Source: Octopus sinensis
Taxonomy: Eukaryota
Direction of reading: 5' to 3'
NCBI RefSeq assembly: GCF_006345805.1
Contig: NC_043016.1
Span: 3,100,001-3,164,000 of the forward strand
DNA: 64,000 nucleotides
Each line of letters opens with the position of its first letter. Within the stretch, counting starts at the first letter, position 1. A program made the translations under genes and the position numbers. The notes below the pieces were generated by a model. The model ran no database searches. It saw only the letters and a program-made list of their open reading frames with translations, and was not told the origin of the DNA. Shown piece by piece: positions 6,301 to 45,550 of this stretch.

Positions 6301-8740
6301 CAAAATAACAAACTCGGCATCTGAGCAACTTTGGACCCCCATAACAACTGAAGAGGTCACCCAGGCACTGCAAAAACTAAGCAACTGGAAGGCACCTGGG
6401 CATGACAAGATCCCCAACTTCTGGTTGAAATATCTAACAGGAATGCACAAAAAGCTGGCTGAAAACTTTAACAGCATACAAGCAGACAATGCCTGAATGG
6501 CTCACGAAGGGGAAAACCATCTTAATTCCCAAATCAAATGAAACAGCAAAACCAGAAAACTACAGACCAATAACCTGCCTCCCTACTATGTTCAAGGCAT
6601 TTACTGCAGTGATATCGCAAAGGCTGAACAAGCACCTGGACGAAAACAAACTGTTCCCAGAAGAGCAGAAAGGATGCCGCAAGGGCTCATATGGCTGTAA
6701 AGATCAACTAATGATTAATAAAGCCGTAACTGAAAACAGCCACAGAAAGAAGAAAGGCCTCAGTATGGCCTGGATTGACTACAAAAAGGCGTTTGATAGC
6801 ATCCCCCACACATGGATCCTCGAAACACTAGCCATTAACAAAATAGCACCAACAATCATAAAATTCATAGAGCATTCTATGAATAAATGGCCCACAGTCC
6901 TACACCTCCAAACAAAAGAGGGACTCATGAAAACCAAAGACATCCCCATTAGAAGAGGAATATTCCAGGGAGACACGCTCTCTCCACTCCTTTTCTGCTT
7001 GGCACTGTCACCTCTATCTGATATGCTAAATAGAACTGGATGCGGGTATAAATGTTACGGCAAAACGATCAGCCACCTTTTATATTTCGATGACCTAAAA
7101 CTATACGCTGCAAATGACAAACAGCTGGAAACACTATTAAAGACAGTTCATGGATTTACCAAAGAAATAGATATGAAATTTGGATTAGAAAAATGCGCCA
7201 AAGTAACCATGAAAAGAGGAAAACTAGTTAAGAGTAACAACATCACACTAGATAAAACCAATGAAATAAAAGAATTAGACCAAAGCCAAACTTACAAATA
7301 CTTAGGAATCCATGAACTAGATAAGACACAACACACACAAATGAAAGAGAAAATAAAAAAAGAATATTATAGACGAGTTAGATCAATACTAAAAACAGAG
7401 CTCAATGCTAAAACAAGATAATAGGTATCAACACTTTAGCTGCCCCAGTTATAGGTTACAGCTACAATATCCTTAACTGGACACGAAATGAACTGTCCAA
7501 AATAGATAGGAAAACGAGAAAAATAATGACAGGATCTAGGATGCATCACCCAAAATCTGACATAGAAAGACTATATATACAACGTATAGAAGGTGGTAGA
7601 GGCCTTATACAGCTGGAAAACTACTATAAAATAACCACCATAGGACTGCAAAAATACCTACTTCAGAAGGAAGGAAAACTGATCCAGATAGCAGCAAAAC
7701 ACGAGCAAAACAAAAAACTGTTCTAAGTATTTAAGGAAGCTGACAAATACAAACAAGAAATCATACCACCTAATAAACATGAAGAAGAAGAAGAAGAAGA
7801 AGATGAAGAAACAACAAAAGCTATAAAACAAATGAAAACCAAACTAAAAATAGAACAGCAACGAACCATGATAAAACGATGGCAAGAAAAGCCCCTTCAT
7901 GGTAAATACTGGACTAAACTAAACGCAAAAGAAATAGACAAAGAAAAATCCCAGCAATGGTTGAGAAGCTCAGGACTCAAAGCAGAAACAGAGGGATTTT
8001 TAATTGCAGCACAAGACCAAAGCCTCCCCACCAGAAATTACCAAAAACATGTAATGAAAAGAAATATTACAAGTAACTGCAGAATATGTGGAGATGGACA
8101 AGAAACAAATCATATTATCTCTAGCTGCCCAGTCCTGGCTAAGAAGGAATATATTCACAGACATGACAGAATTGGAACCTACATACATTGGAAGCTATGC
8201 CAACATTATGGAATAACAACAGAAAAAAGATGGTATAGGCACACATCAGAAAAGGTCACAGAAAACGAGAAAGCAACCATACTCTGGGATATACCGATAC
8301 ACACAGATAGAGAAATTAAGGCCAATAGACCAGATATAGTTGTCAGAGATCATGAAGAAAAAAAATGCTTTCTAATTGATGTATCAATACCGGCAGATGA
8401 CAACGTGTCTCTAAAAGAAATGGAGAAACTCTCAAAATACAAAGACCTGGAAATAGAGGTAACTAGAATGTGGAATCTGAAAACAGAAACAATTCCTATC
8501 ATAGTAGGTGCATTAGGCATGATAAAAAAATATTCAGACAAATACATAACAAAAACACCAGGACTTACAAACACATATAACATACAGTAAATTGCACTAC
8601 TAGGCACTGCACACATCCTACGCAGAACACTTTCCATACAATAACCATCAGAGCATCACAACAAATCACAGCACATACCCAAGGCACACAGAGCTGCGCT
8701 CGGTAGTGAAGTGAAAGCACGCTATAAAATAAAACTACTG
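6301..8740 (+). mobile_element. 5'-truncated R4/Dong-like non-LTR retrotransposon (RT + CCHC + RLE), family A, disrupted
   Basis: RT motifs WKAPGHDKIPNFWLK, NYRPITCLPT, WIDYKKAFDSIPH, GIFQGDTLSPLLF, HLLYFDDLKL and YKYLG. C-terminal CRICG..ETNHIISSC, RHD, RPDIVV, CFLIDVSIP and KLSKYKDL (PD-D..K nuclease). Frameshift near 7410, stops at 7726 and 8590. The 3'UTR ends AAAACTACTG directly into (AAT)n. Confidence 0.92.
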
Positions 8741-8747
8741 AATAATG

Positions 8748-8818
<71 letters not shown>

Positions 8819-8834
8819 CATAATAATGATAATA
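8741..8834. repeat. (AAT)n tail or target of the family A element
   Basis: Pure AAT run that begins at the element's 3' end. Confidence 0.9.
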
Positions 8835-9429
8835 CCATGATGCAGTATCAGGCACTGGATCACATGGCTTTTGATCTTAACTCATTGGAAGAGTTATCAA
8901 GCACATGTTTTGTCTTCGCACAAAATATGGGCTACAATATGCACAATAGCACAGATTTGCTTGTCAGTTACTTGATCATAACCCGTGGTGGCTGGCGTTA
9001 TGTGCATTTTTGATCACGAGCAATAGTATTGGGGGATCATGTGTTGCCCATGTGTTGAGAAGAATTATTTGGGGTTTGAATAATTCATCTCTGAATTGAA
9101 TAATTCATCTCGTTAATCATCCTTAAACAAACCTTATTCTAGCAGGATGGGGACAATTACAATGTAGAGTTTTTCTTTTCGAGGGGGGCGAAAACAAAGT
9201 AAAAAAAAATTGTTACAACAATCAAAATGGATCAAAATCGTTGGGGATATATGCAAAAAATGTCAAAATAGTACAAAAAGTCCCTAAGAAATGGGTCGGT
9301 TTATCTATGGAAAGAAAAACCTACGAAAAGACCACAGTAACCGCGTGCAATTACGTCACATATTAACATATTAATTTACATATAAGTAATTCTCTGTTTT
9401 AAATATTTATGGTTCATAGGATCATGCTC

Positions 9430-12112
9430 AAGGTGGCTTCGTCATTCATACGTGCCATCCTTGATACATTCACCAATATTTTTTTTAAACAGTCGCTAGA
9501 AAAAACTTCCCTCTCTACTTCCTTTTCAAGTGATACTTGAAAAGGTTGATTGATCAGAGAGGAAAGTGTTTGTCTCTAATCCTTTCAGACAAGTCCAATA
9601 GATACATTCTTTCGCCATAGCTACAAGTATTATAAAAATAGCTCTTCCTTCCCGTTTGAAGGAAGGAGGCGTGACAATAGTGACGATAGACTCGGCTGAT
9701 AAACCGACTCGTCCCACACGTGACAGCAGTCGTTCGAATTAAGCCCACAGGTCGGAGATTGTTGGACACTGCACGATTGCGTGCAGAATGGTTTCGTCGC
9801 TCTGACCGCATCTCGAGCAGGTCGGCCCCGTGCTTCTCGAACCATGTCCATAGAGCTTATCCCGAACGGGTAACGCTTCTCGATAGCACTGCCAGGCCAG
9901 GAACCTCTGGAAATTGTCCATAAGTCCCGGCCCGAAAGTTGTCTTGAACAGGCAGGTCAGGTATTCCTCGTCGACTCCCAGGTTCACCCCGAGATCGTCG
10001 TCGTACCTCCTCTCCACTAATCCCCTATAAAATGCTTTCATGGTGATGCAGTCGCTCATGTTCGACCCAGGACGGCAGAGTTGCTGGAGAGCAACGCGAC
10101 ACTCGCGGTGACATTCGCCTTCCTCGGCTTATTTCTGATACACGACTGCAGCTCGGTCATGGAGACGAGCTGCGGGAAAGCGCGTCGTACAAACGGCGAC
10201 CACACCTGCTCACCCTCGTCTACGTAGAGCCTGCGATGTCTCAGTCTCAGCGTGTGTCTGCGCATCATCAACCACGGCATGCCCAGCCCTCATTTCAGCG
10301 GGTGTTGACAGCAAACGGATTGCTTGACCATCGGAACGTTTCCTTTCCACAAGAAGCGGAAGAGGACCCGTTCCAGTTTGGTGACGGTGAGGTCGAGACA
10401 AGTTCTACCCTAGCGAAAGCTTTGGATTGATCCAAATTGGTCAGGGCCACACCCATGCCAGGTTCCTTAACTACCCTGTCTATGCTACCAGTTTCTCGAT
10501 GACAAGCGCCAACCTCTTGGCTAACACCTTGGCCAAAATTTTCAAGTCTGCATTGAGCAGAGTGATGGGCCTAAAGTTATCTAAAATATCCCTCTTGTTT
10601 GGATCTTTCATTAGCGGCGTTACGGCTCCTCGACTCACAAAACCGGGTATGTTCCCGTTCTGCTGCGAGTTGCAGTACACCGCAGCCAAGACGTCTCCAA
10701 ACAAGTCTGGCATACAATAGTAAAGCTCGTAGGGCAGACCATCCAAACCCAGCGATTTGTCCCTCGAGTATCCCGCCATCGCGTCCCTCACTTCCGCCGC
10801 CGTGATAGCACCTTCGCACCACTCTGCCTCACTTGCCGAGAGTCATCGCAGGCTGCGCAGGTAGTCACTGAAGTCCAACCTGCGTTCTCGCTCGCCACTC
10901 ATTCCGAACAGTCGGGCAAAATGCCACTGAAACGCCTCGCACATCTTGCTGGGCACAAACAATTCGCGCCCCTGTTCATCTACTAGAGACCGAATGGTGG
11001 CTTTGTTGCCCCGTTGCGCCTGCGCCAGCCAGGCCTCTCACACGGCTCCAACACCGTTCCTTAGAACAAGCATCCTAGCCCTGACAACACTCCCTTCGTG
11101 TTTGGCATTGAAGTGCTGGTCGAGGGCCAACCTCGCCGCCAAAACGTCGGATGTGATACCGCTTCTTATTGCCTCTTCTAACTTCTTAACTAGCTCACCC
11201 TCTACTCTGTTTCTATGTATGGCTAGTGCATTGCTATACCTAATTGCTTCTGCTTTTATTGCTCTCTTGAGGGCAAACCACCATTTGTTGTTGACGATGG
11301 CTCCCGTCAAAGCCCTCTTTACTAGTGTGCTAATTCGGTCTCTGAAAACCTGTCTCTACGGGAAAGACGCGTTTAGTTTCCAGTAACCGGGACCCTGCCT
11401 ATGTGCCTTATGTAAGTCTAGCGTACATGTCACAAGTTTGTGATCTGTGTAGCTGACTATGTAGAATGGTGGACATCCTAAGCTATCCCTATCGACTGTC
11501 CTACATAGTATCCTATCTAGATAAGATCTCGACGACCCATTTTGGTTGCTCCATGTCCACGTTGGCGCCTTTGGGTGTTCGAGTCGGTACTTGTCGGAGA
11601 GTTGAAAGCGTCCGTGCAGGTCTCTGAGGCATTTACATCCCCGTCTATTTTCGTCTCTCTCCACGTAGTCTAGATGCATGTCCAAGGTAGCATTCCAATC
11701 CCCCACTAATGGACGAGACGTTCCCATGAATAATTCTAGACGTCGAAAGAAACCTGGTCGACCTGTTAAAGGCGGTGCATAGACTGCTAGGTGTCGAAAA
11801 GCGCACCTATCGCTGCCGTCGAAATCCAGATCAACCATTCTACCCTCCGGGTCCACGAATATCGTCTTTACTTCCAGATCCAGACTCTTGCGAAAAAGTA
11901 CCGTCGTGCCACTACCGCCCATTCTCGGCAGACAGGGAGAAAAAATAAGTTAAACTCTCCGCTAAACGAGGACTTTAGAGCCCGTGGCTCATGGAGTTTG
12001 GTCTCCCTTATGGCTATGATTCCTTAATCATGTGACTAGATGTCATTTAAGAGGTACCCTTGTTTCCAAGGGGATCCCAAGCCACGCGCATTCACACAAC
12101 CAATCTTGATTA
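9430..12112 (-). pseudogene. Disrupted ORF2 (AP endonuclease, partial RT, C-terminal zinc knuckle) of the Tx1-like LINE
   Basis: ORF pieces 11356-11922, 11038-11310, 10480-10791, 10056-10280 and 9739-10059. No QG/PLS or YADD segment is present between SKAFARV and KLERVLFRFLW. Confidence 0.82.
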
Positions 12113-12161
12113 TGATCCCATTGAGTTGTGTGCTTTAAAACTCAAACGAAGGAACAGAGAG

Positions 12162-13760
12162 TTACTTACCTTTCGAAAGATTTGTCTCCTCCTTTGATTT
12201 TTCATTGAGGCTTTTGTACATTTTTTTGCATAAATATTTATGACATCCTCCTATCGCATTGGGATAGAGGGACTTTAGAGTGTGGTGCAATGTTGGTGAT
12301 ATGTGATAAATTTTTATGTGTTCTGGTGATGTTGTGTGTGAGTGGTTATTCGTTTTAATGTCGTTTTCTGTAATGTTTGTCTTTGTGTTGATGTATTTCA
12401 TCAACTCTGTGTTTTTTGGTGTCTATGACTGTGAGCATATTCCCTGTATATATTTTTGTGGCGTTGATATTGTTTGTGGCAGGTTTTGAGATGACTTCGG
12501 GAGATGTATATCTCCCTGCTTTGTTTGCTTCTGTATTGAATTTGGTTCTTTTTTTGCTCCTTTTCTGGCTATTTGCCATTCCTCAGTGCTTTCGTCTTCC
12601 GACGAAATTTCCGAGCAATCGGAAGGGGGTGGGGGTATGCTATAGACTTCAATGTGTGTTTGTGTAATTGATTGTGTTGTCGTTTTTTCCGCTGATGTTG
12701 GTTGTTGATTGTTTGTGTGTGGTGTGTGTGATGTGGGGAAAGGGGAATCAGTTTTTGTATTGTCTTTTGGTTTTACTGCTTCTATAGTTCTTGCTGTTGT
12801 TGGTAGTGTTTTTTCAGATATTGTTTTATGTTTATTTGTTGGGGTTGGCGGGTTTGGTTTTGTACTCTCTTTGCTTGTCCTCTGTGCTGATGGTGGTGTG
12901 GGTAGTAGTGTTTCTTTTTCCTTTGCACTTTTTCCTTGTTGTAGTTGTTGTTCTTGTTCGGGTTTTTGTTTTTTTTTGCTGTTGGGCAACCACTTCTTAG
13001 GTGTTCCTCGCTGACACACATGTAACAGAGAGGCCTCCTACCCTCTACCACCACGTAAACGTTATTGCCGTCTGGCAGCTCAATTTGTGGGGGGATGTTA
13101 GTGATTTGGTTTTGATCTATTGCATCAATAACTGAATCATTCTCCCCGACCAATTCACTTGCTCCAAGGCAGCATATTCGAGGATATTTATATTCTCCTC
13201 CATGTTGTAGCAAATGGCAGACAACAGCCATTGTGACTCTACTTCTGGAGGGGCATTTTTATCGAAAATATGGTCACACGTTTACCGAGGTAGGTCGGAA
13301 TTAAAATTAGTTTTTCCGACTCTAAGGTGAGCGTCGAAAGTTCTTTCGCTCTTTCTTCGCTGTCGAAGAGAACTTGTATTGTGGCATATTTGTTCCACCA
13401 ATGTATATAATTTTTATGTGCCCATTTCGGGCGTAAATATTTTTCGGTGAGTTCTGGTTGTGCTTGTTCTGGTCTGCGTGTTTTTGCGTTTAAGACTTTG
13501 TATATTATTGTTCTCTTTTGTGTGGTGTCTATGATGTTTTGTGGTATATTTAAGCGTAGATGTGTACCTTCATGAGTTAAGAGGGCTTTTGTATGTCTTA
13601 TTTGTTCTGTTGTGAAGTTTAGTATTGTCTTTTTTTGTTTTAAAGCTTGTGCAAAATTTGATTTGTTTTCCGTGGTAGTGTTGGTGGCAGGGATGTCATT
13701 TGTAGTAGTTGAGATTGTAGTAGTGGTGTTGTTGTTGGCAGTTATGGTAGACGGCAAATA
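12162..13760 (-). pseudogene. Frameshifted ORF1 (gag-like, CCHC zinc knuckle) of the Tx1-like LINE
   Basis: ORF pieces 13239-13757, 12782-13231, 12423-13019 and 12162-12404; motif VVVEGRRPLCYMCVSEEHLRSGCP. Confidence 0.75.
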
Positions 13761-13797
13761 GACGATATCGTTGTTGTTCTTATTGTTGTTGGTGGTG

Positions 13798-13829
<32 letters not shown>

Positions 13830-14289
13830 GGTGTTAGTAGCAGTGGTAGCCTTGTTGTTGGAGGTGGTGGTGGCAGTGGTAGTCTTGTTGTTGTTGGTGG
13901 TGGTGGTGGTAACAGGGCTGTTAACAAAGTAGTTACAGCGTTCACTTCCACGTCACTCAGGTTTGTCTTAGGTTTTTACTTGTCCTATCTGTTCTATTAG
14001 AATGTGTGTGCATGCAGGAGTTCTGTTTTTGTCCTAGCGTTTCAAGGCTAGAGAAATGCTGGCCATGAAGGAATTTGACCAGCGTTCGACATTTTTAATG
14101 TCGAGAGAAATATATACAATTTAATTAGGGTTGAAACTGCTCCTAGGGGCCAATTCCTCCCTTGGAAAAGCACTCAAACGAAAGTTGGGTGCTTTGCACA
14201 CCTTATTTGCAAAAATGTACACAAAATGAGGGCTATAAATGGTCAAAATAAACGATTACCTTCGGAGCCGATGTGACAACACGTCAGTC

Positions 14290-15138: not shown

Positions 15139-18100
15139 CACACTCCAGTCTAATATCCACACTCCAGTCTAATATCCACACTCCAGTCTAATATCCACAC
15201 TCCAGTCTAATATCCACACTCCAGTCTAATATCCACACTCCAGTCTAATATCCACACACTCCAGTCTAATATCCACACTCCAGTCTAATATCCACACTCC
15301 AGTCTAATATCCACACTCCAGTCTAATATCCACACTCCAGTCTAATATCCACACTCCTGTCTAATATCCACACTCCAGTCTAATATCCACACTCCAGTCT
15401 AATATCCACACTCCAGTCTAATATCCACACTCAGTCGAATATCCACACTCCAGTCTAATATCCACACTCCAGTCTAATATCCACACTCCAGTCTAATATT
15501 CCACACTCCAGTCTAATATCCACACTCCAGCTCTAATATCCACACTCCAGTCTAATATCCACACTCCAGTCTAATATCCACACTCCAGTCTAATATCCAC
15601 ACTCCAGTATATATCCACACTCCAGTCTAATATCCACACTCCAGTCTAATATCCACACTCCAGTCTAATATCCACACTCCAGTCTAATATCCACACTCCA
15701 GTCTAATATCCACACTCCAGTCTAATATCCACACTCCAGTCTAATATCCACACTCCAGTCTAATATCCACACTCCAGTCTAATATCCACACTCCAGTCTA
15801 ATATCCACACTCCAGTCTAATATCCACACTCCAGTCTAATATCCACACTCCAGTCTAATATCCACACTCCAGTCTAATATCCACACTCCAGTCTAATATC
15901 CACACTCCAGTCTAATATCCACACTCCAGTCTAATATCCACACTCCAGTCTATATCCACACTCCAGTCTAATATCCAACTCCAGTCTAATATCCACACTC
16001 CAGTCTAATATCCACACTCCAGTCTAATATCCACACTCCAGTCTAATATCCACACTCCAGTCTAATATCCACACTCCAGTCTAATATCCACACTCCAGTC
16101 TAATATCCACACTCCAGTCTAATATCCACACTCCAGTCTAATATCCACACTCCAGTCTAATATCCACACTCCAGTAATATCCACACTCCAGTCTAATATC
16201 CACACTCCAGTCTAATATCCACACTCCAGTCTAATATCCACACTCCAGTCTAATATCCACACTCCAGTCTAATATCCACACTCCAGTCTAATATCCACAC
16301 TCCAGTCTAATATCCACACTCCAGTCTAATATCACACTCCAGTCTAATATCCACACTCCAGTCTAATATCCACACTCCAGTCTAATATCCACACTCCAGT
16401 CTAATATCCACACTCAGTCTAATATCCACACTCCAGTCTAATATCCACACTCCAGTCTAATATCCACACACCAGTCTAATATCCACACACCAGTCTAATA
16501 TCCACACTCCAGTCTAATATCCACACTCAGTCTAATATCCACACTCCAGTCTAATATCACACTCCAGTCTAATATCCACACTCCAGTCTAATATCCACAC
16601 TCCAGTCTAATATCCACACTCAGTCTAATATCCACACTCCAGTCTAATATCCACACTCCAGTCTAATATCCACACTCCAGTCTAATACCACCACACTCCA
16701 GTCTAATATCCACACTCCAGTCTAATATCCACACTCCAGTCTAATATCCACACTCCAGTCTAATATCCACACTCCAGTCTAATATCCACACTCCAGTCTA
16801 ATATCCACACTCCAGTCTAATATCCACACTCCAGTCTAATATCCACACTCCAGTCTAATATCCACACTCCAGTCTAATATCCACTCCAGTCTAATATCCA
16901 CACTCCAGTCTAATATCCACACTCCAGTCTAATATCCACACTCCAGTCTAATATCCACCACTCCAGTCTAATATCCACCACTCCAGTCTAATATCCACCA
17001 CTCCAGTCTAATATCCACACTCCAGTCAATATCCACACTCCAGTTCTAATATCCACACTCCAGTCTAATATCCACACTCCAGTATAATTCCACACTCCAG
17101 TCTATATCCACACTCCAGTCTAATATCCAACACTCCAGTCTAATATCACACTCCAGTCTAATATCCACACTCCAGTTAATATCCACACTCCAGTCTAATA
17201 TCCACACTCCAGTCTAATATCCCACACTCCAGTCTAATATCCACACTCCAGTCTAATATCCACACTCCAGTCTAAATCCACACTCCAGTCTAATATCCAC
17301 ACTCCAGTCTATATCCACACTCCAGTCTAATATCCACACTCCAGTCTAATATCCCACTCCAGTCTAATATCACACTCCAGTCTAATATCCACACTCCAGT
17401 CTAATATCCACACCCAGTCTAATATCCAACTCCAGTCTAATATCCACACTCCAGTTAATATCCACACTCCAGTCTAATATCCACACTCCAGTCTAATATC
17501 CACACTCAGTCTAATATCCACACTCCACCTCCTCTAATATCCACACTCCAGTCTAATATCCACACTCAGTCTAATATCCACAATCCAGTCTAATATCCAC
17601 ACTCCAGTCTAATATCCACACTCCAGTCTAATATCCACACTCCAGTCTAATATCCACACTCCAGCTAATATCCACACTCCAGTCTAATATCCACACTCCA
17701 GTCTAATATCCACACTCCAGTCAATATCCACACTCCAGTCTAATATCCACCACTCCAGTCTAAATCCACACTCCAGTCTAATATCCACACTCCAGTTCTA
17801 ATATCCACACTCAGTCTAATATCCACACCCAGTCTAATATCCACACTCCAGTCTAATATCCACACCCAGTCTAATATCCACACTCCAGTCAATATCCACA
17901 CTCCAGTCTATATCCACACTCCAGTCTAATATCCACACTCCAGTCTAATATCACACTCCAGTCTAATATCACACTCCAGTCTAATTCCACACTCCAGTCT
18001 AATATCACACTCCAGTCTAATATCACACTCCAGTCTAATATCACACTCCAGTCTAATATCCACACTCCAGTCTAATATCCACCACTCCAGTCTAATATCC

Positions 18101-18462
18101 ACACTCCAGTCTAATAGCCACACTCCAGTCTAATATCCACACTCCAGTCTAATATCCACACTCCAGCTAATATCCACACTCAGTCTAATATCCACACTCC
18201 AGTCTAATATCCACACTCCAGTCTAATATCCCACTCCAGTCTAATATCCACACTCCAGTCTATATCCACACTCCAGTCTAATATCCACACTCCAGTCTAA
18301 TATCCACACTCCAGTCTAATATCCACACTCCAGTCTAATATCCACACTCCAGTCTAATATCCACACTCCAGTCTAATATCCACACTCCAGTCTAATATCC
18401 ACACTCCAGTCTAATATCCACACTCCAGTCTAATATCCACACTCCAGTCTAATATCCACACA
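15139..18462. repeat. Minisatellite, 19-bp unit CACACTCCAGTCTAATATC, about 175 copies
   Basis: Head-to-tail array of about 3.3 kb with no spacers; variants are mostly 1-bp indels. Copy number is estimated as length/19. Confidence 0.97.
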
Positions 18463-20653
18463 CCAGACGCGCACACTCACACGAAGAAATGTTGTAAGCA
18501 CATGCGCCTCTGGAACTTGAACAAGTTTCTTATGGATACATATATAACATACACACACACACGTGTGTGCTTGAATGTCACAGTCATACACGCACGCACA
18601 TATAGGATTATGTGCACACACAAGATGCGCACACACGGACATCAATACTTGTAAACACGCGTGCACACGTATACAGCGCACACACACACTTGATGTATAT
18701 GCATATTCATACACGTCCATTCACGCGCTCGATAAACAGACATGTCTGCGCATACACATCAGAAGTATGTATGCATGCATATACACGGACTCTACTCACA
18801 CACATGCGCCACGCGAATATTACAGGTACTGGCGCACACATATTCGCGCTCATACACACGCACCTGCTTACACGCAGATGCAGATACACTCGTGCACAAG
18901 TACGCATGGCCATGATTTCCATCAACTTTCTGACCAACCATGTGATCCTTGGAATTCAATTTGTATCTGTTGTCACTTCTATGTCAATAACACTGCGTTA
19001 CTAAGAACGTGTCACGTGTGTTGACCAAACTCAATATTCAGAACCGTTCTCGAATCTTTTCTCTGAAATGTGTTCTTTCCATGACGAGGCCTTATATTAA
19101 GAGATGTTTGCGACTGGGTTTATCCAATAAGTACTTTCTTAATGCAAAAGAGGTTGGAATTGAATGATATTTGACTGCTATTTTCAGTTCACGTTCAGGG
19201 TCTCTCGCTGTAACGATGACAACGGTGATTTTATTGTTAATGATTTTGATGGCACTAGCCTTAGAATCGTCATTGCACTTTTGAAGGCACCCTGGTGGAT
19301 TTGGTCGTTGTGGTGGTGGTAGTGTCGGTCGTGTACGTGATAATAGTAGTTGTGGAAGTGGTGCTAGTGACGAGTGCTGCATCAAAATATTAATGTTAGT
19401 ATTTCTGGTAAGGGTGGTGGCTGCGATAAAATTCAAAGAATAGCATTCAAAATTTCAGTGTAAAATTTTCCAAAATGTATCATTTTTTTTCATCGAATTA
19501 ACGGCATTCTTCTGCTTTTTCATTTTCTTCTTCTCCCTCTTCTTCTCTTTCTTCTTCCTTCCTTTCTTTACCTCCATTAGTTTATTTGAAATAGATCTAA
19601 GTAAATCTGCACAACAATTCCATGAGAACTAGCATTACATTAAAACAAGAACAACTCAATAAAATCGAAAAACATAAAACAAAATAAAAAATGGTATATA
19701 AAATAAAATGAAATAAATTCATAAATGGCTGTGCCCATGGATTGCCTGCTAAAAATTGTATTAGTGAAGAAAATAATGTATATGGACGAAAAAAGCTAGT
19801 CGTGGATGTATGTCTTTCATAGGAGTCACATTATTAAGTAGCTTCTTCTTTGATAGCAAATGATACTTTTCTGTTTTTAAATAGAAAGGTTTTACTATTC
19901 GGAACGTTTGTGTTCTATGAAGAAAAGCATTAAAATTTTCCCGAAATATCGATTGAGATAGCTGTTGAATTTAAGTTCAAATACGAAAAAACAGATATGC
20001 GTGGATACATCGTTGAACAAACTAACACTGCTTTGTAATATGAAGTCACTAATATAAAAATTAAAAATAAAAGAAGGTACAAAATTCCTCTCAATAAACA
20101 GGAAGTTCTTCCTCTTTTATGAGACTCGCAATCTCATATTTATTCATATCAGTACACGAACATCAGTCATATCACACAATATACTACTGTATATGTATAT
20201 ATCTGAACATACACATACACACACACATGGAGAAAGAGAAAGAGAGACAGAAAGAGAGAGAGAGTAAGAGAGTGAGAAAGTGAGAGAGACTGTACATGAG
20301 AAAGAGAGAGTGTGTAGGTCTGAGGGAGAGAGAGATACATAATTATGTATAAGTAAGATAACGTGTTTTTCAGGTAAAGTTTTCTTAATGGTGATTATTT
20401 AGTACACGTTATTGCGTAAGATCTTAAATAGTTAAATAGATTACCATATAGATATACATTTTCAATATATATTTTAGCAGCATTAAGCCTAGATTACTGA
20501 GATGGTAACTTGAGGCACTTTTCCAAGCAATTCTTGGACATGAACGCAATTGAAGATCTTAAAAAGCTGGTTTGTGATGGTGACAAGAAGTTAAAAAATA
20601 GGCAGGATGGGCATTACAGAGAATGAAAATCTAGGAGAAAAATATTGAACCAA

Positions 20654-38993: not shown

Positions 38994-39376
38994 GTGGAGG
39001 CGCAATGGCCCAGTGGTTAGGCAGCGGACTCGCGGTCATAGGATCGCGGTTTCGATTCCCAGACCGGGCGTTTTGAGTGTTTATTGAGCGAAAACACTTA
39101 AAAAAGCTCCACGAGGCTCCGGCAGGGGAGTGTGTGATCCCTGCTGTACTCTTTCACCACAACTTTCTCTCACTCTTACTTCCTGTTTCTGTTGTACCTG
39201 TATTTCAAGGGGCCGGCCTTGTCACTCTCTGTGTCACGCTGAATATCCCCGAGAACTACGTTAAGAGTGCATGTGTCTGTGGAGTGCTCAGCCACTTACA
39301 CGTTAATTTCACGAGCAGGCTGTTCCGTTGATTCGGATCACGGAACCCTCGTGTCGTAACCGACGGAGTGCTTCCA
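38994..39376 (+). mobile_element. SINE family 2, full length, with 11-bp TSD
   Basis: tRNA-like head (TGGCCCAGTGGTT..GGTTTCGATTCCC); ACTTCTCATTC at 38983-38993 and 39377-39387. Confidence 0.92.
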
Positions 39377-39435: not shown

Positions 39436-39535
39436 NNNNNNNNNNNNNNNNNNNNNNNNNNNNNNNNNNNNNNNNNNNNNNNNNNNNNNNNNNNNNNNNN
39501 NNNNNNNNNNNNNNNNNNNNNNNNNNNNNNNNNNN
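39436..39535. other. Assembly gap (100 N)
   Basis: Run of exactly 100 N, probably a placeholder of unknown true size. Confidence 0.99.
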
Positions 39536-40110
39536 AAAGAGATTTTCTTTACTTATTCGTTGTCTCGAGGTTGTATCGTCCCTAAATTGGTAGAGGGGGA
39601 AATTCTCTGAATTTGGTGTTTTTTTTTTTGTTGGCGCAAGTATCTATGTGTTGGCTAAAACTATTTTTCTGTTTTGGGGGTGATTTTTATCTGGGATCTG
39701 TGCAGGGCCATTCGTTTACGCAAACCATTTTTTGTTTGGCCTATGTACTGCTCTTGACACCCGGAGCAGGTTAGTGAGTATATTAGGTTCTCCGAAGCAC
39801 ATGTGAAGCTTGCTTTTCACTGTAAACCGTTGTCCCTGTTTGAAGGAGAACTCTGATCCCTTAATTAGATAGTCGCATATCCCGCAATTGGGTCTTCCAC
39901 ATTTTTTTACTGTCGGCTTCTGTGTTGGGAAGAGTGAATTCGGGCTTGTGTTAGGAGACTTTTCATGGATCTAGGCTGTCTTTTGCTTTTTATGATCGTG
40001 TGTGTTTGGAGGATTGTGTTCATTCTGTGGTCTTTTTTAGGAGGGGTATGTTGGTGGAGGATGTGTCGAAGGCTTCGTTATTGAAGGATTGTGTGTGGAG
40101 ATGTATGGTA
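39536..40110 (-). mobile_element. Penelope-like element fragment: zinc-finger linker plus GIY-YIG endonuclease, frameshifted
   Basis: Manual minus-strand translation gives PYISTHNP, KSKRQPRSMKSLLTQAR, KKCGRPNCGICDYL, FTCASENLIYSLTCSGCQEQYIGQTKNGLRKRMALHRSQI and FSQHIDTC. It is not in the ORF track. Confidence 0.85.
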
Positions 40111-40161
40111 ATTATATATGTATATATATAATTATCTAAAAAAAAAAAAAACTTTTTTTAC

Positions 40162-40202
40162 AATTCTTGAAAAGTCACATTATGACGAAAACCGGTTGAA
40201 TT
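40162..40202 (+). ncRNA. Minimal type I hammerhead-like motif, U3:A8 core variant
   Basis: AAUUC-UUGAAAA-GUCA(CAUUA)UGAC-GAAAACCGGUU-GAAUU. Stem I and stem II are perfect, with an AACCGGUU palindrome and one extra A relative to the consensus. Confidence 0.55.
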
Positions 40203-40480
40203 AATATATATTTATATATTTTATCAATTTCTCATTTCATTAAAATTTTCTTTCAATTTAGCATTCTGCATTTTTACAATTTTTTCTTGCCTATAATTAT
40301 ATATATATATATATAACATAAGGGACTAAAGCCATCTGAATATGGCTAGGGACAGGGCAGGGTGGTGGGGTGTTACTGTTGCATTTAGCCCCAGGCGAAC
40401 ATCGACGTCACCAGATAGGCCCGACACCGTCACGGTGTCCTTTTACCTGCAAAGGGAGGTAATTCCCCGATGAAGCGGAA

Positions 40481-40533
40481 ACCACACACCGGACCATGGT
40501 TTCAAGGTGTATTGCCTATCGTCGGCGTGTGGT
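40481..40533 (-). ncRNA. Type I hammerhead-like motif, copy A
   Basis: ACCACACG-CCGACGA-UAGG(CAAUACA)CCUU-GAAAC-CAUG-GUC-CGGUGUGUGGU; palindromic stem III ACCAUGGU, GUC triplet, U4C core variant. Confidence 0.65.
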
Positions 40534-40842
40534 AGGCTTCCGCTTCCTCGACGAACACCTCACTCTGCAGGATATTCATATATAGATTTTCAAGCAAAAT
40601 ACATTTGCTGATTTCGAAATTCTGTTCGAAAGCATAATAATTCTCTAAAAGAGATATAAGACAGTAACTGCTCGATAACATAAGGGACTAAAGCCATCTG
40701 AATATGGCTAGGGACAGGGCAGGGTGGTGGGGTGTTACTGTTGCATTTAGCCCCAGGCGAACATCGACGTCACCAGATAGGCCCGACACCGTCACGGTGT
40801 CCTTTAACCTGCAAAGGGAGGTAATTCCCCGATGAAGCGGAA

Positions 40843-40895
40843 ACCACACACGGACCATGGTTTTCAAGGTGTATTGCCTATCGTCGGCGTGTGGT
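40843..40895 (-). ncRNA. Type I hammerhead-like motif, copy B
   Basis: Same as copy A but reads GAAAAC (one extra A); stem I CACACG/CGUGUG is perfect. Confidence 0.6.
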
Positions 40896-40940
40896 AGGCT
40901 TCCGCTTCCTCGACGAACACTCACTCTGAAGCGGAAGCCT

Positions 40941-40993
40941 ACCACACGCCGACGATAGGCAATACACCTTGAACCATGGTCCGTGTGTGTGGT
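40941..40993 (+). ncRNA. Type I hammerhead-like motif, copy C (inverted arm)
   Basis: Same as copy A but reads GAAC (one A fewer). Confidence 0.55.
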
Positions 40994-41818
40994 TTCCGCT
41001 TCATCGGGGAATTACCTCCCTTTGCAGGTTAAGGACACCGTGACGGTGTCGGGCCTATCTGGTGACGTCGATGTTCGCCTGGGGCTAAATGCAACAGTAA
41101 CACCCCCACCACCCTGCCCTGTCCCTAGCCATATTCAGATGGCTTTAGTCCCTTATGTTATCGAGCAGTTACTGTCTATATCTCTTTTAGAGAATATTAT
41201 TGCTCTATATATATATATATATATATATAATATGTATGTATTATATAAATTATATATATATTATATATATTACATACATACATACATATACATATCTTTC
41301 TACATATCTCCAACTGTGCGTACTGACTCTCACACGATCAATCCCCCCCACAACACACACAACACACACATATGATATAAATCCGCACATCTACTTAAAG
41401 AAATTCATATATAGATACCCGTAGATATATATAGTTCATAAAATTATACACATATATACACAGACATACACCAATACATTTATAAATATATATCCATAAA
41501 TATTCTTTATATTTTCACCCAGACACTCATATGCATACATACGCATAGAAACATAGGCACACGCACAAAAATATAAAATTATATCTGCATAGATATACGC
41601 ATTTATGAAGATACATGCACCCTTACAACGCATATCCATAGTCTGCAAATCATACATAAAACATGCACTCACGCGTAGACACACATACACATATACACTC
41701 AGACATGTATATATTTTCATGGACTGTAGATACGTGAGTGGGCACCCATGCATATTAATACGGAGACAAGCACAATCTGACTGGCTGTTTACTGAATTAT
41801 TATTTGTTCTTCTTCAAA

Positions 41819-42032
41819 GCGGCGAGCTGGCAGAATCGTTAGCACGCCGGGCGAAATGCTTAGCGGTATTTCGTCTGTCTTTATGTTCTGAGTTCAAATT
41901 CCGCTGATGTCGACTTTACCTTTCATCCTTTCGAGGTCGATAAATTAAGCAACAGTTGTGTGCTGGAGTCGATTTAATCGACTGGTCCTCTCCCCCAAAA
42001 TTTCGGGCTTTGTGCCTACAGTAGAAAAGAAT
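41819..42032 (+). mobile_element. SINE family 1
   Basis: GCGGCGAGCTGGCAGAATCGTTAGCACGCCGGGCG..GAGTTCAAATTCC..CTTTCATCCTTTCGAGGTCGATAAATTAAG..GTAGAAAAGAAT. Confidence 0.9.
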
Positions 42033-42284
42033 ATTAGTTATTATTCATGATACTATTATCAGACATTAGGCAAAGAGCTGCATAATCAAATATATGTATT
42101 CTTGGAGAACTACGTTGCGCCGACGAACAAACACCTGTAACGAATAATAAATAAATGTCCAACCGTACTCCTTCTTCTTGAGTCCAATTTCTTCCATTTT
42201 ATACACATGCGCACGCGCACGCGCACGCACACGCACGCGCACGCACACGCACACATACATACATACATACATATATACATACAT

Positions 42285-42437
42285 GGAGGTGCGGTAAGTA
42301 GCTTGTTTACCAACCAGATGGTTCCAGTTCAGTCCCACTGCGTGGCACCTTGGGCAGGTGTCTTCTACTATAGCCTCGGGCCGACCAAAGCCTTGTGAGT
42401 GGATTTGGTAGACGGAAACTGAAAGAAGCCCGTCGTA

Positions 42438-42484
<47 letters not shown>

Positions 42485-42724: not shown

Positions 42725-43276
42725 TACATATATACATACATAAATATTGTTTCAACGAAGTCGCGTGTTGTTCTTGCGGAGTAGATGAAACGCGGAGTAG
42801 ATGAAACAAGGACAACTGAAGAAGGGGAATATTCTTTATGTTTTATGTCTCGTTTCTCTGTGTGTTTTTTTTTCGTTGTTCGAAAAAAGTGAGTTTCTAT
42901 GCTTTTGTTTTTATGTTTTCGTTTCTCATTGTGTTCGACGTTTTTCTTATGTCCTGTACCCATATATGCATGTGTATATATACATATATATGTAGGCATG
43001 TACATATATGTATGTATATATGGATATATTTATATATTATTTATATTATTATATGATCGAACGCCACACATACTTTTCCAAGTAAGTTACATATATATAT
43101 GTATGTATGTGTGTGTGTGTATATAATATATATATAATAAAGGGAATAGAAAGGAATTGTGTTGCCTATATGCTGAAACTAGACGCTAAATCGTCACACC
43201 ACTTTAAAAGTCATAAAGTTACACACGAGTTGAAATAGAAGCAGCAAGCTAACGGAAACTAATAACAGTTTAGATA

Positions 43277-43333
43277 GCCCAGGATTAGCTACTTTCTGGA
43301 TTTGCCGAATTGCTTTTCCTTCTTCAGCAGAGC
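43277..43333 (-). ncRNA. Degenerate type I hammerhead-like motif (left arm)
   Basis: GCUCUG-CUGAAGA-AGGA..UCCA-GAAA-GUAGCUAA-UC-CUGGGC; canonical core with mismatches in stems I and III. Confidence 0.55.
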
Positions 43334-43481
43334 ACACATACAGGAAATTAGATACTTATACATACCCACAGGAAAGCAAAACGCAAAGCCACAAATACAT
43401 ATAAATACACTAGATACCTCTGACAACAAATTTAGCAGCTCGCCTCAGCAACATGTGTATTCGGTCGCATATGCATTGTGT

Positions 43482-43538
43482 GCTCTGCTGAAGAAGAAAA
43501 AGCCACTGGGTAAATCCAGGAATTAGCTAATCCAGGGC
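43482..43538 (+). ncRNA. Degenerate type I hammerhead-like motif (right arm)
   Basis: GCUCUG-CUGAAGA-AG..UCCA-GGAA-UUAGCUAA-UC-CAGGGC; stem I pairs, AUUAGCUAAU palindrome, GAAA changed to GGAA. Confidence 0.55.
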
Positions 43539-43744
43539 TTTCTATATTGTTATTAATCTCCGTTAGCTTGCTGCTTCCATTTCAACACGAGTGCAACTTT
43601 GTGACATTTTAGTGGTGAGACGATTTATCGTCTACTTTCTGCTAGAAAATTCGTTTCTATGCTCTTAATTATATAGACAATCGGTATTTTTTTATATGCT
43701 GTCCACTAAAACTCTTTCAAACAACTTTATCCTTTGTTATTGTA

Positions 43745-43986: not shown

Positions 43987-44079
<93 letters not shown>

Positions 44080-44168
44080 ATATACATATATACGACGGGC
44101 TTCTTTCAGTTTCCTTCTACCAAATCCACTGACAAGGCTTTTGTCGGCTTGAGGCTATAGTAGAATAC
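43745..44168 (-). mobile_element. SINE family 3, 5'-truncated, internal (TA)n
   Basis: ACGACGGGCTTCTTTCAGTTTCC..ACCAAATCCAC..GAGGCTATAGTAGAA plus the reverse complement of the family tail. Confidence 0.8.
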
Positions 44169-44289
44169 TGAACAAAAGAAAATAAAACGGACAGTTCAAA
44201 AATTAGAATGAAAAACGGAAGAAATAAAAATATGGTTCCAAATGGCAATACTATTATTATTATTATATATTACTGTTATATATATGCGC

Positions 44290-44438
44290 AGTTTCTGTCC
44301 ACCAAATACACATAGACGGCTTTAGTTGGCCTGAAGCTGTAGGAGAAGACACCAGACCAAAGTTCCACACAGTGGAACTGAATCCGGAACTACGGGGTTG
44401 GGAAGCAAGCTTCTTACCACGCAGCTACCCCTGCGCCT
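44290..44438 (-). mobile_element. SINE family 3 head and CORE portion
   Basis: GGTTGGGAAGCAAGCTTCTTACCAC..CCTGCGCCT is the reverse complement of the tRNA-like head. Confidence 0.7.
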
Positions 44439-44720: not shown

Positions 44721-45411
44721 ATGGTGTATGTACATATGTGTGTATATATACGTATATTGTTCGTTGAATCGACTATACACACACACATATATATATACAT
44801 ATATATACATATATATATAGGAGAGAGAGTGAGGGGGGGAAAGTGGGAGAGAAGAGAGTTATATCTATATGCATAAATATACATATGTATGTGTGTGTGT
44901 GTGCATATATATTCACATATAGATACATACATATACATACACGAGTTCCTCATCTACCATTTTATCTTAACTTTTGTTGGACAGGTGTAAGTGATTATAT
45001 ATCTTTTTAATTCGTCTCTAATGTTATATCAATCTGACTTTTACTATTCGGCTCCAGGTATGTTTGGTATGGAAAGACAGACATACGTACAAATTGATTT
45101 TCTTTATGACATTTATCATGATTCTCTTCTAAAGACTAGTGACCCAAAGTTGAACTTTCGGAAAACAGCTTTTCGATATTTATCTAGTAAATAGTTAAAT
45201 CAAACTTATTATGTGCTGAGATTCCGTGTGAAACAGATACACGTGAACAGCAGAGCTAGTTAGCTATGAAAGCATACACTACACTGTATTACGAAAATAT
45301 ATACCCCTCTTTCATTTATGCATATATTTCAGTGTTCGCTATCTATCGTTTTCTCTTAATGAATTTTTCTTTCTATAATATACACACATAATGCAATCCA
45401 TATAGGCTTGT

Positions 45412-45540
45412 GTGTAAATTTCGCCGATATCGACTTTGCTTTACATTCTTTCGGGGTCGATAAATTAAGTACCAGTCGATCTAATCGACTGGCCTCTTCC
45501 CCCCAAATTTCGGGCCTTGTGCCTAGAGTAGAAAATAATA
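45412..45540 (+). mobile_element. SINE family 1, 3' part
   Basis: TCGACTTTGC..TTTCGGGGTCGATAAATTAAGTACCAG..GGGCCTTGTGCCTAGAGTAGAAA. Confidence 0.8.
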
Positions 45541-45550
45541 TAGGCTTGTG

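Follow-up and report, generated by a model that had tools for sequence, protein, structure and literature searches.

The repeat locus

A 361-nt non-coding unit is present in the 64-kb stretch of Octopus sinensis contig NC_043016.1 that was analysed here (the window) as 1.7 head-to-tail copies and one inverted copy, next to a fragment of a Penelope-like element (PLE). The features of the locus are listed below, with the strand where it applies.

39536-40111, minus strand: open reading frame fragment of a PLE, 5'-truncated and frameshifted, running into a 100-N gap (Pfam, tblastn)
40162-40202, plus strand: second, unrelated minimal hammerhead-like motif (descriptor match)
40298-40315: (TA)9 target at the 3' end of copy A (TRF)
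40313-40568, minus strand: copy A, whose 3' end at 40313 is the putative first start site of reverse transcription (repeat comparison)
40423-40439: hairpin GACACCGT-C-ACGGTGTC (sequence and minimum free energy, MFE, fold)
40472-40546, minus strand: long hairpin GAAGCGGAA / UUCCGCUUC with hammerhead A at its tip (fold and descriptor)
within 40472-40546, minus strand: hammerhead A, with core CCGACGA at 40525-40519, stem II at 40518-40504, GAAA at 40503-40500, helix III ACCAUGGU and C17 at 40492
40569-40630, minus strand: AT-rich rest of the unit, occurring once at the locus (blastn; high depth in run X1; bridged by a contig of run X5)
40631-40674, minus strand: 44-nt tail, i.e., unit sequence from the 3' end of copies A and B to the 3' end of copy C
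40675-40928, minus strand: copy B, 5'-truncated, with hammerhead B at 40894-40847 and C17 at 40853
40909-40927: 19-nt unpaired centre of the palindrome, which is unit sequence with no foreign DNA
40928-41203, plus strand: copy C, inverted, with the tail and 5'-truncated 20 nt short of B; hammerhead C at 40942-40987 and C17 at 40981
41206-41230: (TA)n target at the 3' end of copy C (TRF)

Copies A and B differ by one substitution and three one-base gaps in 256 nt and are 362 nt apart from start to start, in agreement with the tandem period of about 362 bp given by an earlier reading of this DNA (hereafter, the sequence-only reading). Their cleavage-site nucleotides at 40492 and 40853 are 361 nt apart on the minus strand, exactly where that reading had placed two GUC sites, and that of copy C is on the plus strand. 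Copy C is the reverse complement of 40631-40908, which covers copy B and the tail, with no substitutions and with indels only; the previously described inverted copy, its 19-nt spacer (40909-40927) and the (TA)n bounds at 40298-40315 and from 41206 are thus all found. The arm formed by A and B amounts to 1.7 units and the C arm to 0.76 unit. Between A and B there are only 106 non-coding nt (62 nt plus the 44-nt tail), and the 44-nt extension carried by C is absent from A. The two 3' ends are separated by 44 nt of the unit, one lying 179 nt and the other 223 nt beyond the cleavage site. With the hammerhead strand as reference, the arms diverge from the centre, so the microsatellite adjoins the 3' end of each. 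The flanks both read CTATA and then TA repeats, and because they lie inside (TA)n a target-site duplication cannot be delimited. B and C are predicted to form 272 pairs on either strand, and a transcript running through both would form a 272-bp hairpin. No further copy of the unit was found by blastn elsewhere in the window.

The unit had been called GC-rich, which is true of 40313-40568 (54%) but not of the spacer plus tail (29%) or of the unit as a whole (46.5%). The longest reading frame with a Met start on the circularised unit encodes 89 aa, a length matched in 169 of 2000 shuffles, i.e., at chance level. The predicted monomer fold has a z-score of -6.7 as a linear molecule, -5.8 as a sense circle and -4.3 as an antisense circle and puts the hammerhead motif at the end of an extended stem; the local fold of the long hairpin at 40472-40546 has a z-score of -4.8. 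A reading of the unit as a tRNA-derived SINE was dropped, because ARAGORN predicted no tRNAs in the window and a simple pattern search of the unit was negative for Pol III A and B boxes.

Hammerhead-like motifs of the unit

Each copy contains, in this order, CACACG, the core CCGACGA, stem II, a G-A run, CCAUGG, UC and CGUGUG. Helix I consists of 6 bp that run into the long stem, helix II of a U-U followed by 3 bp (AGG/CCU) with the loop CAAUACA, and helix III of 2 bp with a tetraloop. All the core letters are present in copy A, as well as in record 32 of X5 (see below), except U4, which is replaced by C (U4C). In the assembly every copy departs from a perfect hammerhead: stem I of A contains an extra C (40489), B has one A too many and C one too few, the G-A run reading GAAA, GAAAA and GAA in A, B and C, respectively, which are the three, four and two A noted previously. 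Two descriptors, a strict one and a loose one that allows any one core change, were both written after the motif had been seen. The loose descriptor passes 0 of the 3 assembled copies, while the strict one, if an extra A is allowed, passes only B, and passes A once the extra C is removed. By chance, the strict descriptor was matched in 0 of 5000 shuffles of the unit and had 0 matches in 40 shuffled windows. The loose one was matched in 2 of 3000 unit shuffles, had 2 matches in 6 shuffled windows and, when only the 34-nt interior was shuffled and the hairpin arms were kept, was matched in 0 of 20000 mononucleotide and 0 of 20000 dinucleotide shuffles; it has one unrelated match (19493) in the real window. 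The hammerhead-like architecture is thus far beyond chance. An Rfam search, as proposed in the sequence-only reading, returned no hammerhead family for the unit at E-values up to 10, and its matches to MIR2950 and mir-147 are under the gathering score and reflect the hairpins.

The motifs had further been assigned to the minimal type I hammerheads, a class defined by CUGANGAH, a long helix II and a short helix I without loop 1 (PMC4209133). Their helix sizes fit the canonical metazoan type I class, as that paper delineates it, better, and a minimal type is not supported. Canonical-like hammerhead variants are known in some PLEs (PMC4209133), and canonical helix sizes are therefore compatible with a PLE origin.

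In the predicted MFE fold, G5-A6-C7 are paired with the GUC site, and the active fold of a monomer is predicted to cost 8.8 kcal/mol over the MFE (7.3 kcal/mol with a canonical core). For two units, the energy is -65.2 kcal/mol as a double hammerhead versus -68.2 kcal/mol as two MFE folds and -50.6 kcal/mol as two active monomers, all as rough nearest-neighbour sums without tertiary contacts; the double hammerhead is within 3 kcal/mol of the two MFE folds and the two active monomers are 17.6 kcal/mol away from them. The dimer cleavage through a palindromic helix III suggested by the sequence-only reading would hence be energetically plausible. Active natural ribozymes with a U-U at the base of stem II are known, among them HHR_Amex2 of axolotl (PMC7229834; PMC3088659). 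In a viroid, U4C was reported to lower activity considerably in vitro and still to support infection (Ambros and Flores 1998, cited in PMC3088659).

A multi-copy family in public sequencing contigs

Contigs of four of the 24 public runs listed (X1, X2 and X4 of DNA type, and X5, which is guessed to be RNA) were compared with 39540-40690, a stretch that holds one unit. The whole length of the unit is covered in all three DNA-type runs. Summed depth over the unit in X1 is 120,000-720,000, which is not a copy number. At the majority variant sites the mean depth per contig in X1 is 6,400-14,200, versus a median of 72 for long diverged contigs; the ratio is roughly 90- to 200-fold in X1 and, as roughly, 15- to 90-fold in X2 and X4. 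The X1 values give a rough floor of about 100 near-identical copies, which again is not a copy number. The unit is a multi-copy family, and single-copy status, which the sequence-only reading had named as evidence against its proposal, is not what is found.

Record 32 of X5 has 391 letters over 40325-40690 at a depth of 12.4 and differs from the window by 5 substitutions and 5 gaps; when these are applied, the unit is exactly 361 nt long. As 391 is 361+30, the record has the length expected when words of 31 letters close into a loop, i.e., of head-to-tail closure at 361 nt. The record has no edits in the core or the GAAA run, its GAAAC is intact and the extra C of stem I is absent. The form without the extra C is also found in 12 X1 contigs (53% of depth) and 7 X4 contigs (16%), and was not seen in X2. 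The form of the family is thus GAAAC with a 6-bp helix I; because the closed X5 contig has an intact GAAAC, the differing A runs of the window copies are probably assembly errors. Record 32 maps colinearly so as to begin at 40313, its first 12 letters falling in a stretch that was skipped by the mapping. A contig that begins at the 3' end of copy A suggests a branch, i.e., a recurring insertion end. The loop itself can arise equally from a genomic tandem or from a circle, X5 being RNA only by guess.

Depth peaks at the 3' end of the unit in all three DNA runs, as would be expected from 5' truncation from a fixed start or from a 3' end shared with other elements. A related family does share the 3' ~100 nt of the unit, where depth in X2 and X4 is about 300,000-500,000 versus 4,000-50,000 further in. 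Among the 24 of 745 loose ends listed, those of this family behind 40415 (X2, X4) retain the GACACC/GGTGTC hairpin but differ in its loops and in a single change that replaces G-C by A-T on both sides of the hairpin. The abundant family sharing the 3' end (40320-40420) is a candidate autonomous partner or sister element and is the best lead to a partner. Scans for the pattern of the unit 3' end gave 0 matches in metagenome contigs, viral contigs and prokaryote genomes, collections that are not expected to hold animal repeats.

X1 and X2 have the same organism code, and their depths over 40437-40690 differ more than tenfold and their majority cores differ; this contrast suggests a recent lineage-restricted expansion or a mixed label.

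Variation of the core

At position 4 (40524) the window letter, i.e., U4C, holds about 97% of the depth in X1. In X2 and X4 both 40524 and 40525 are changed in about 94% of the depth, with matching depths and contig counts, so that, if the two changes are colinear, the majority core of these runs reads UUGA(U/C)GA; position 7 is U in 59-83% of their depth. Five C>T places are counted in X4, all among the rows listed and none at 40520, which means that G8 is unchanged there and that the sister form would have a U3-G8 wobble. Both core forms are present in X5, at depths of 12.4 and 3.2. Core positions 3, 4 and 7 vary, and no variant of G5, A6, G8, A9, GAAA, the palindrome or GUC is found among the rows listed (40 of 44 for substitutions, 12 of 29 for gaps). 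A more far-reaching but less probable reading is that weakened cores became fixed separately in two sister subfamilies, CCGAYGA in one and UUGAYGA in the other, and that both were amplified nonetheless, with the full scar of PLE insertion. If this is true, either slow or protein-dependent cleavage has been selected or cleavage is dispensable.

The T at 40416, which is shared by all three window copies, was considered as a private mark of a single template; it is weak as such, being a minority letter in X1 (8%) and the majority letter in X2 and X4.

The neighbouring PLE fragment and a second hammerhead

The fragment at 39536-40111 contains, in this order, the end of an RT thumb/linker, CxxxxCxxC and GIY-YIG. 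Its Pfam match to GIY-YIG has an E-value of 1.6e-4, just under the curated cut-off, which the relatives P0010 and P0015 pass. An exhaustive protein search found 26 relatives, of which the one named among the eight looked up is from Octopus bimaculoides, while a word-index protein search for longer relatives returned nothing. Homology detected by tblastn has its limit at 40111. By its order of domains the fragment is of the C-terminal-endonuclease type and Neptune/Nematis-like, according to the layouts outlined in PMC8557442. The 100-N gap (39436-39535) cuts the 3' end of the neighbouring PLE, and many one- and two-base indels are seen in the assembly relative to the run contigs.

The second hammerhead-like motif has a U3-A8 core, a 4-bp stem II, an ACCGGU palindrome, a 5-bp stem I and one extra A in its GAAA run, and U3-A8 covariation has been reported in PLE ribozymes (PMC4209133). 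Rfam returned no match for 40162-40202. The region 40164-40280 has a high depth in three DNA runs, and at its loose ends the site letter is T in X1 and A in X2 and X4. The motif probably belongs to an inverted 3' repeat (~40112-40296) of the neighbouring PLE.

The two tandem hammerheads of the unit share the strand of the GIY-YIG fragment, as had been observed in the sequence-only reading. This is no evidence that the unit is a pseudo-LTR of that fragment, since the second hammerhead, on the opposite strand, and then (TA)n separate the two and their ends have no sequence in common: blastn of the unit against the 3' repeat of the neighbour gave no match, and the sense-sense local score is at the level of shuffles (p ~0.23). 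The pseudo-LTR assignment is therefore not upheld, and the unit and the neighbouring PLE probably used the same microsatellite. An antisense local match of the two, both of them AT-rich, scores 38, which was reached in 2 of 300 shuffles, and blastn finds nothing.

More generally, the repeats might be stacked pseudo-LTRs of an autonomous PLE whose reading frame is missing here, be it the neighbour or a family absent from the window. Their layout is indeed that of PLE ends, the strand is that of the ORF fragment, and the far more abundant X2/X4 family with the common 3' ~100 nt could be the autonomous element. The X5 contig and the continuous depth of X1, however, run from the spacer into the tail and the next unit with no branch to an ORF; no ORF for RT plus GIY-YIG lies between A and B; and the ORF of the neighbour is cut at 40111 and flanked by a hammerhead of another type on the other strand. 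We consider this explanation improbable.

A PLE-type integration signature

The single assembled locus combines a partial tandem, an adjacent inverted and 5'-truncated copy, a tail on one arm and a microsatellite target, and this layout corresponds to the published signature of PLE insertion, whose general features, including the tail, are described in PMC8557442. Published PLE tails are 30-40 bp long and on one end only (PMC3846280; PMC8557442; PMC11167929); the 44-nt tail of the unit is slightly longer. Pen2a of Adineta, as depicted in PMC3846280, has a pair of direct repeats, a shorter inverted one beside them and a tail at one end, and the octopus locus matches this layout with 62 nt in place of the ORF. 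In vitro, an anole PLE was found to cut and extend both strands of AT-rich DNA and to start reverse transcription at two internal sites, the interval between which makes up the tail (PMC11167929).

Could the tandem and the inversion instead be an artefact of assembly, i.e., a fold-back read near the gap at what is a simpler locus? The assembly is rich in indels (9 gap openings and 0 substitutions between B and C), the 100-N gap is 780 nt away, and no strand-changing joint is present among the 15 of 26 listed, the compared stretch 39540-40690 ending before the inversion junction. The tandem junction is, however, present in the independent run X5. In a fold-back read the mirrored sequence would continue into the spacer and copy A, but C breaks off 44 nt beyond the end of A and B, at a (TA)n of its own; the palindrome is centred on 19 nt that belong to the unit; and the tail with an inverted copy is the published PLE layout. 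We regard an artefact as very unlikely, and the locus is probably a real insertion rather than the fold-back chimera of which the sequence-only reading had warned.

Two uncut GUC sites are included in the insert, which extends 179 nt beyond a cleavage site; this indicates that its template was a circle or an uncut multimer and not a linear monomer from GUC to GUC. Of the earlier proposal that a ~361-nt monomer is moved by a PLE reverse transcriptase, a retrozyme-type unit likely mobilised by a PLE is retained, and the linear monomer as the template is not.

Proposed mode of mobilisation

We propose that the unit is likely a new family of non-LTR retrozyme and a non-autonomous PLE derivative, for which cleavage and circles are predictions. 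The route that we favour, and hold to be probable though well short of assured, consists of slow cleavage of dimers, ligation and copying back of the circle by a PLE enzyme encoded elsewhere. The minus strand would be transcribed by read-through; two motifs would pair via the 8-nt palindrome ACCAUGGU and be cut after GUC, at a rate kept low by U4C and by the U-U at the base of stem II; and a host ligase would close the 361-nt monomer. A PLE protein would then nick both strands of (TA)n and prime cDNA internally at 40313 and at the equivalent of 40631, sites that are separated by 44 nt, one cDNA going 1.7 times round the template and the other 0.76 times, or being a fold-back copy of the first, and the cDNA ends would be joined head to head. 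Dimer cleavage, ligation and circle copying have been proposed for retrozymes (PMC7229834; PMC6765202). Counting against this route are the lack of an Rfam hammerhead match, U4C, the mispairing in the MFE fold, the cleavage in vitro of only one of nine predicted Xenopus retrozyme dimers (bioRxiv 10.64898/2026.07.22.740005) and the anole PLE, for which uncut RNA is described as the dominant insertion substrate and no RNA-seq reads as ending at the cleavage site (PMC11167929).

The same element may alternatively have a vestigial or nearly silent hammerhead and spread as a non-autonomous PLE from uncut multimers, so that no circle is needed. U4C at ~97% of the depth in X1, a sister form changed at position 3 with an unchanged G8 at ~94% of the depth in X2 and X4, and an insert that crosses two uncut sites would all agree with this, as would the in vitro insertion by the anole PLE, which is stated to be unaffected by ribozyme mutants (PMC11167929). 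It is at odds with the absence of variants at G5, A6, G8, A9, GAAA, the palindrome and GUC among the rows listed while positions 3, 4 and 7 vary, as well as with the infectivity of the viroid with U4C and the natural activity of ribozymes with a U-U base of stem II. We rank a vestigial hammerhead as clearly less probable than slow dimer cleavage, and as a more serious alternative than the two considered above.

Relation to known systems

Metazoan non-LTR retrozymes are described as tandem units of 150-450 bp with less than 50% GC, no ORF and one type I hammerhead each (PMC7229834; bioRxiv 10.64898/2026.07.22.740005), those of mussel being 350-390 bp long (Cervera and de la Pena 2020, PMC7229834). 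The octopus family is similar to them in unit size, GC content, lack of an ORF, one hammerhead-like motif per unit, a self-paired monomer and co-existing PLEs, and its 2-bp helix III with a tetraloop and U-U base of stem II are also those of axolotl HHR_Amex2, which is reported to cleave well only as a dimer (PMC7229834). It differs in its core, CCGA(C/U)GA with the sister UUGA(U/C)GA instead of CUGANGA, and in the inverted copy and tail of PLE integration at the unit locus, which are not part of the metazoan retrozyme descriptions in the passages cited. Cleavage and circles have been shown for the coral, mussel and axolotl retrozymes (PMC7229834), while the octopus unit is known here from its sequence.

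Like endonuclease-bearing PLEs, the locus has two direct repeats and an adjacent shorter inverted repeat, a tail at one end, a head-to-head junction, an AT-rich or (TA)n target and a hammerhead with a palindromic helix III upstream of the 3' end; unlike them, it has 62 nt and the tail in place of an RT-EN ORF between its repeats and has helix sizes of the canonical rather than the minimal type. MRC1, one of the non-autonomous derivatives of Chlamys PLEs, is likewise non-coding, is inserted head to tail and has a 3' end in common with another family, but Chlamys belongs to a green-algal, N-terminal-endonuclease clade that is presented in PMC8557442 as being without canonical hammerheads. The core change is the same as that of the viroid U4C variant (Ambros and Flores 1998, via PMC3088659), with the difference that in octopus it predominates, in one run, across a genomic repeat family.

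Earlier publications cover non-LTR retrozymes and their connection with PLEs. The repeat family itself is likely new: the literature searched on octopus or cephalopod hammerheads, retrozymes and Penelope, on non-autonomous Penelope elements and on hammerheads with U4C has no report of the unit family or of U4C in an animal repeat, and no mollusc is among the species sampled in the available text of Li, Clavereau and Pollet 2026 (bioRxiv 10.64898/2026.07.22.740005). In the sources cited above, the view that PLEs move animal retrozymes is based on their co-occurrence, on hammerheads common to both and on similarity to pLTRs. The PLE-specific tail and inverted copy support it anatomically and directly for a unit of retrozyme size, though at a single assembled locus. 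The non-canonical core found across the family touches on the question of whether PLE-type mobilisation requires cleavage and circular RNA; in vitro they are reported not to be required (PMC11167929). If the two weakened cores are indeed those of sister subfamilies, the 361-nt unit would be a natural substrate for asking whether PLE reverse transcription uses circles. Descriptors that demand CUGANGA, as well as Rfam, miss the unit family.

Other repeats in the window

A satellite with a 19-bp unit (176.5 copies, 95% matches) extends over 15139-18466. At 38998-39375 we see by eye what we take to be a tRNA-like SINE head, with look-alikes of the A and B boxes followed by a body, in which ARAGORN found no tRNA. 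Two families of dispersed repeats have direct and inverted copies, at 41889-42034 and 45409-45541 and at 42328-42459 and 44069-44382, respectively. MITE-like inverted arms of 133 nt, which are 86% complementary and 138 nt apart, are found at 43206-43338 and 43477-43609.
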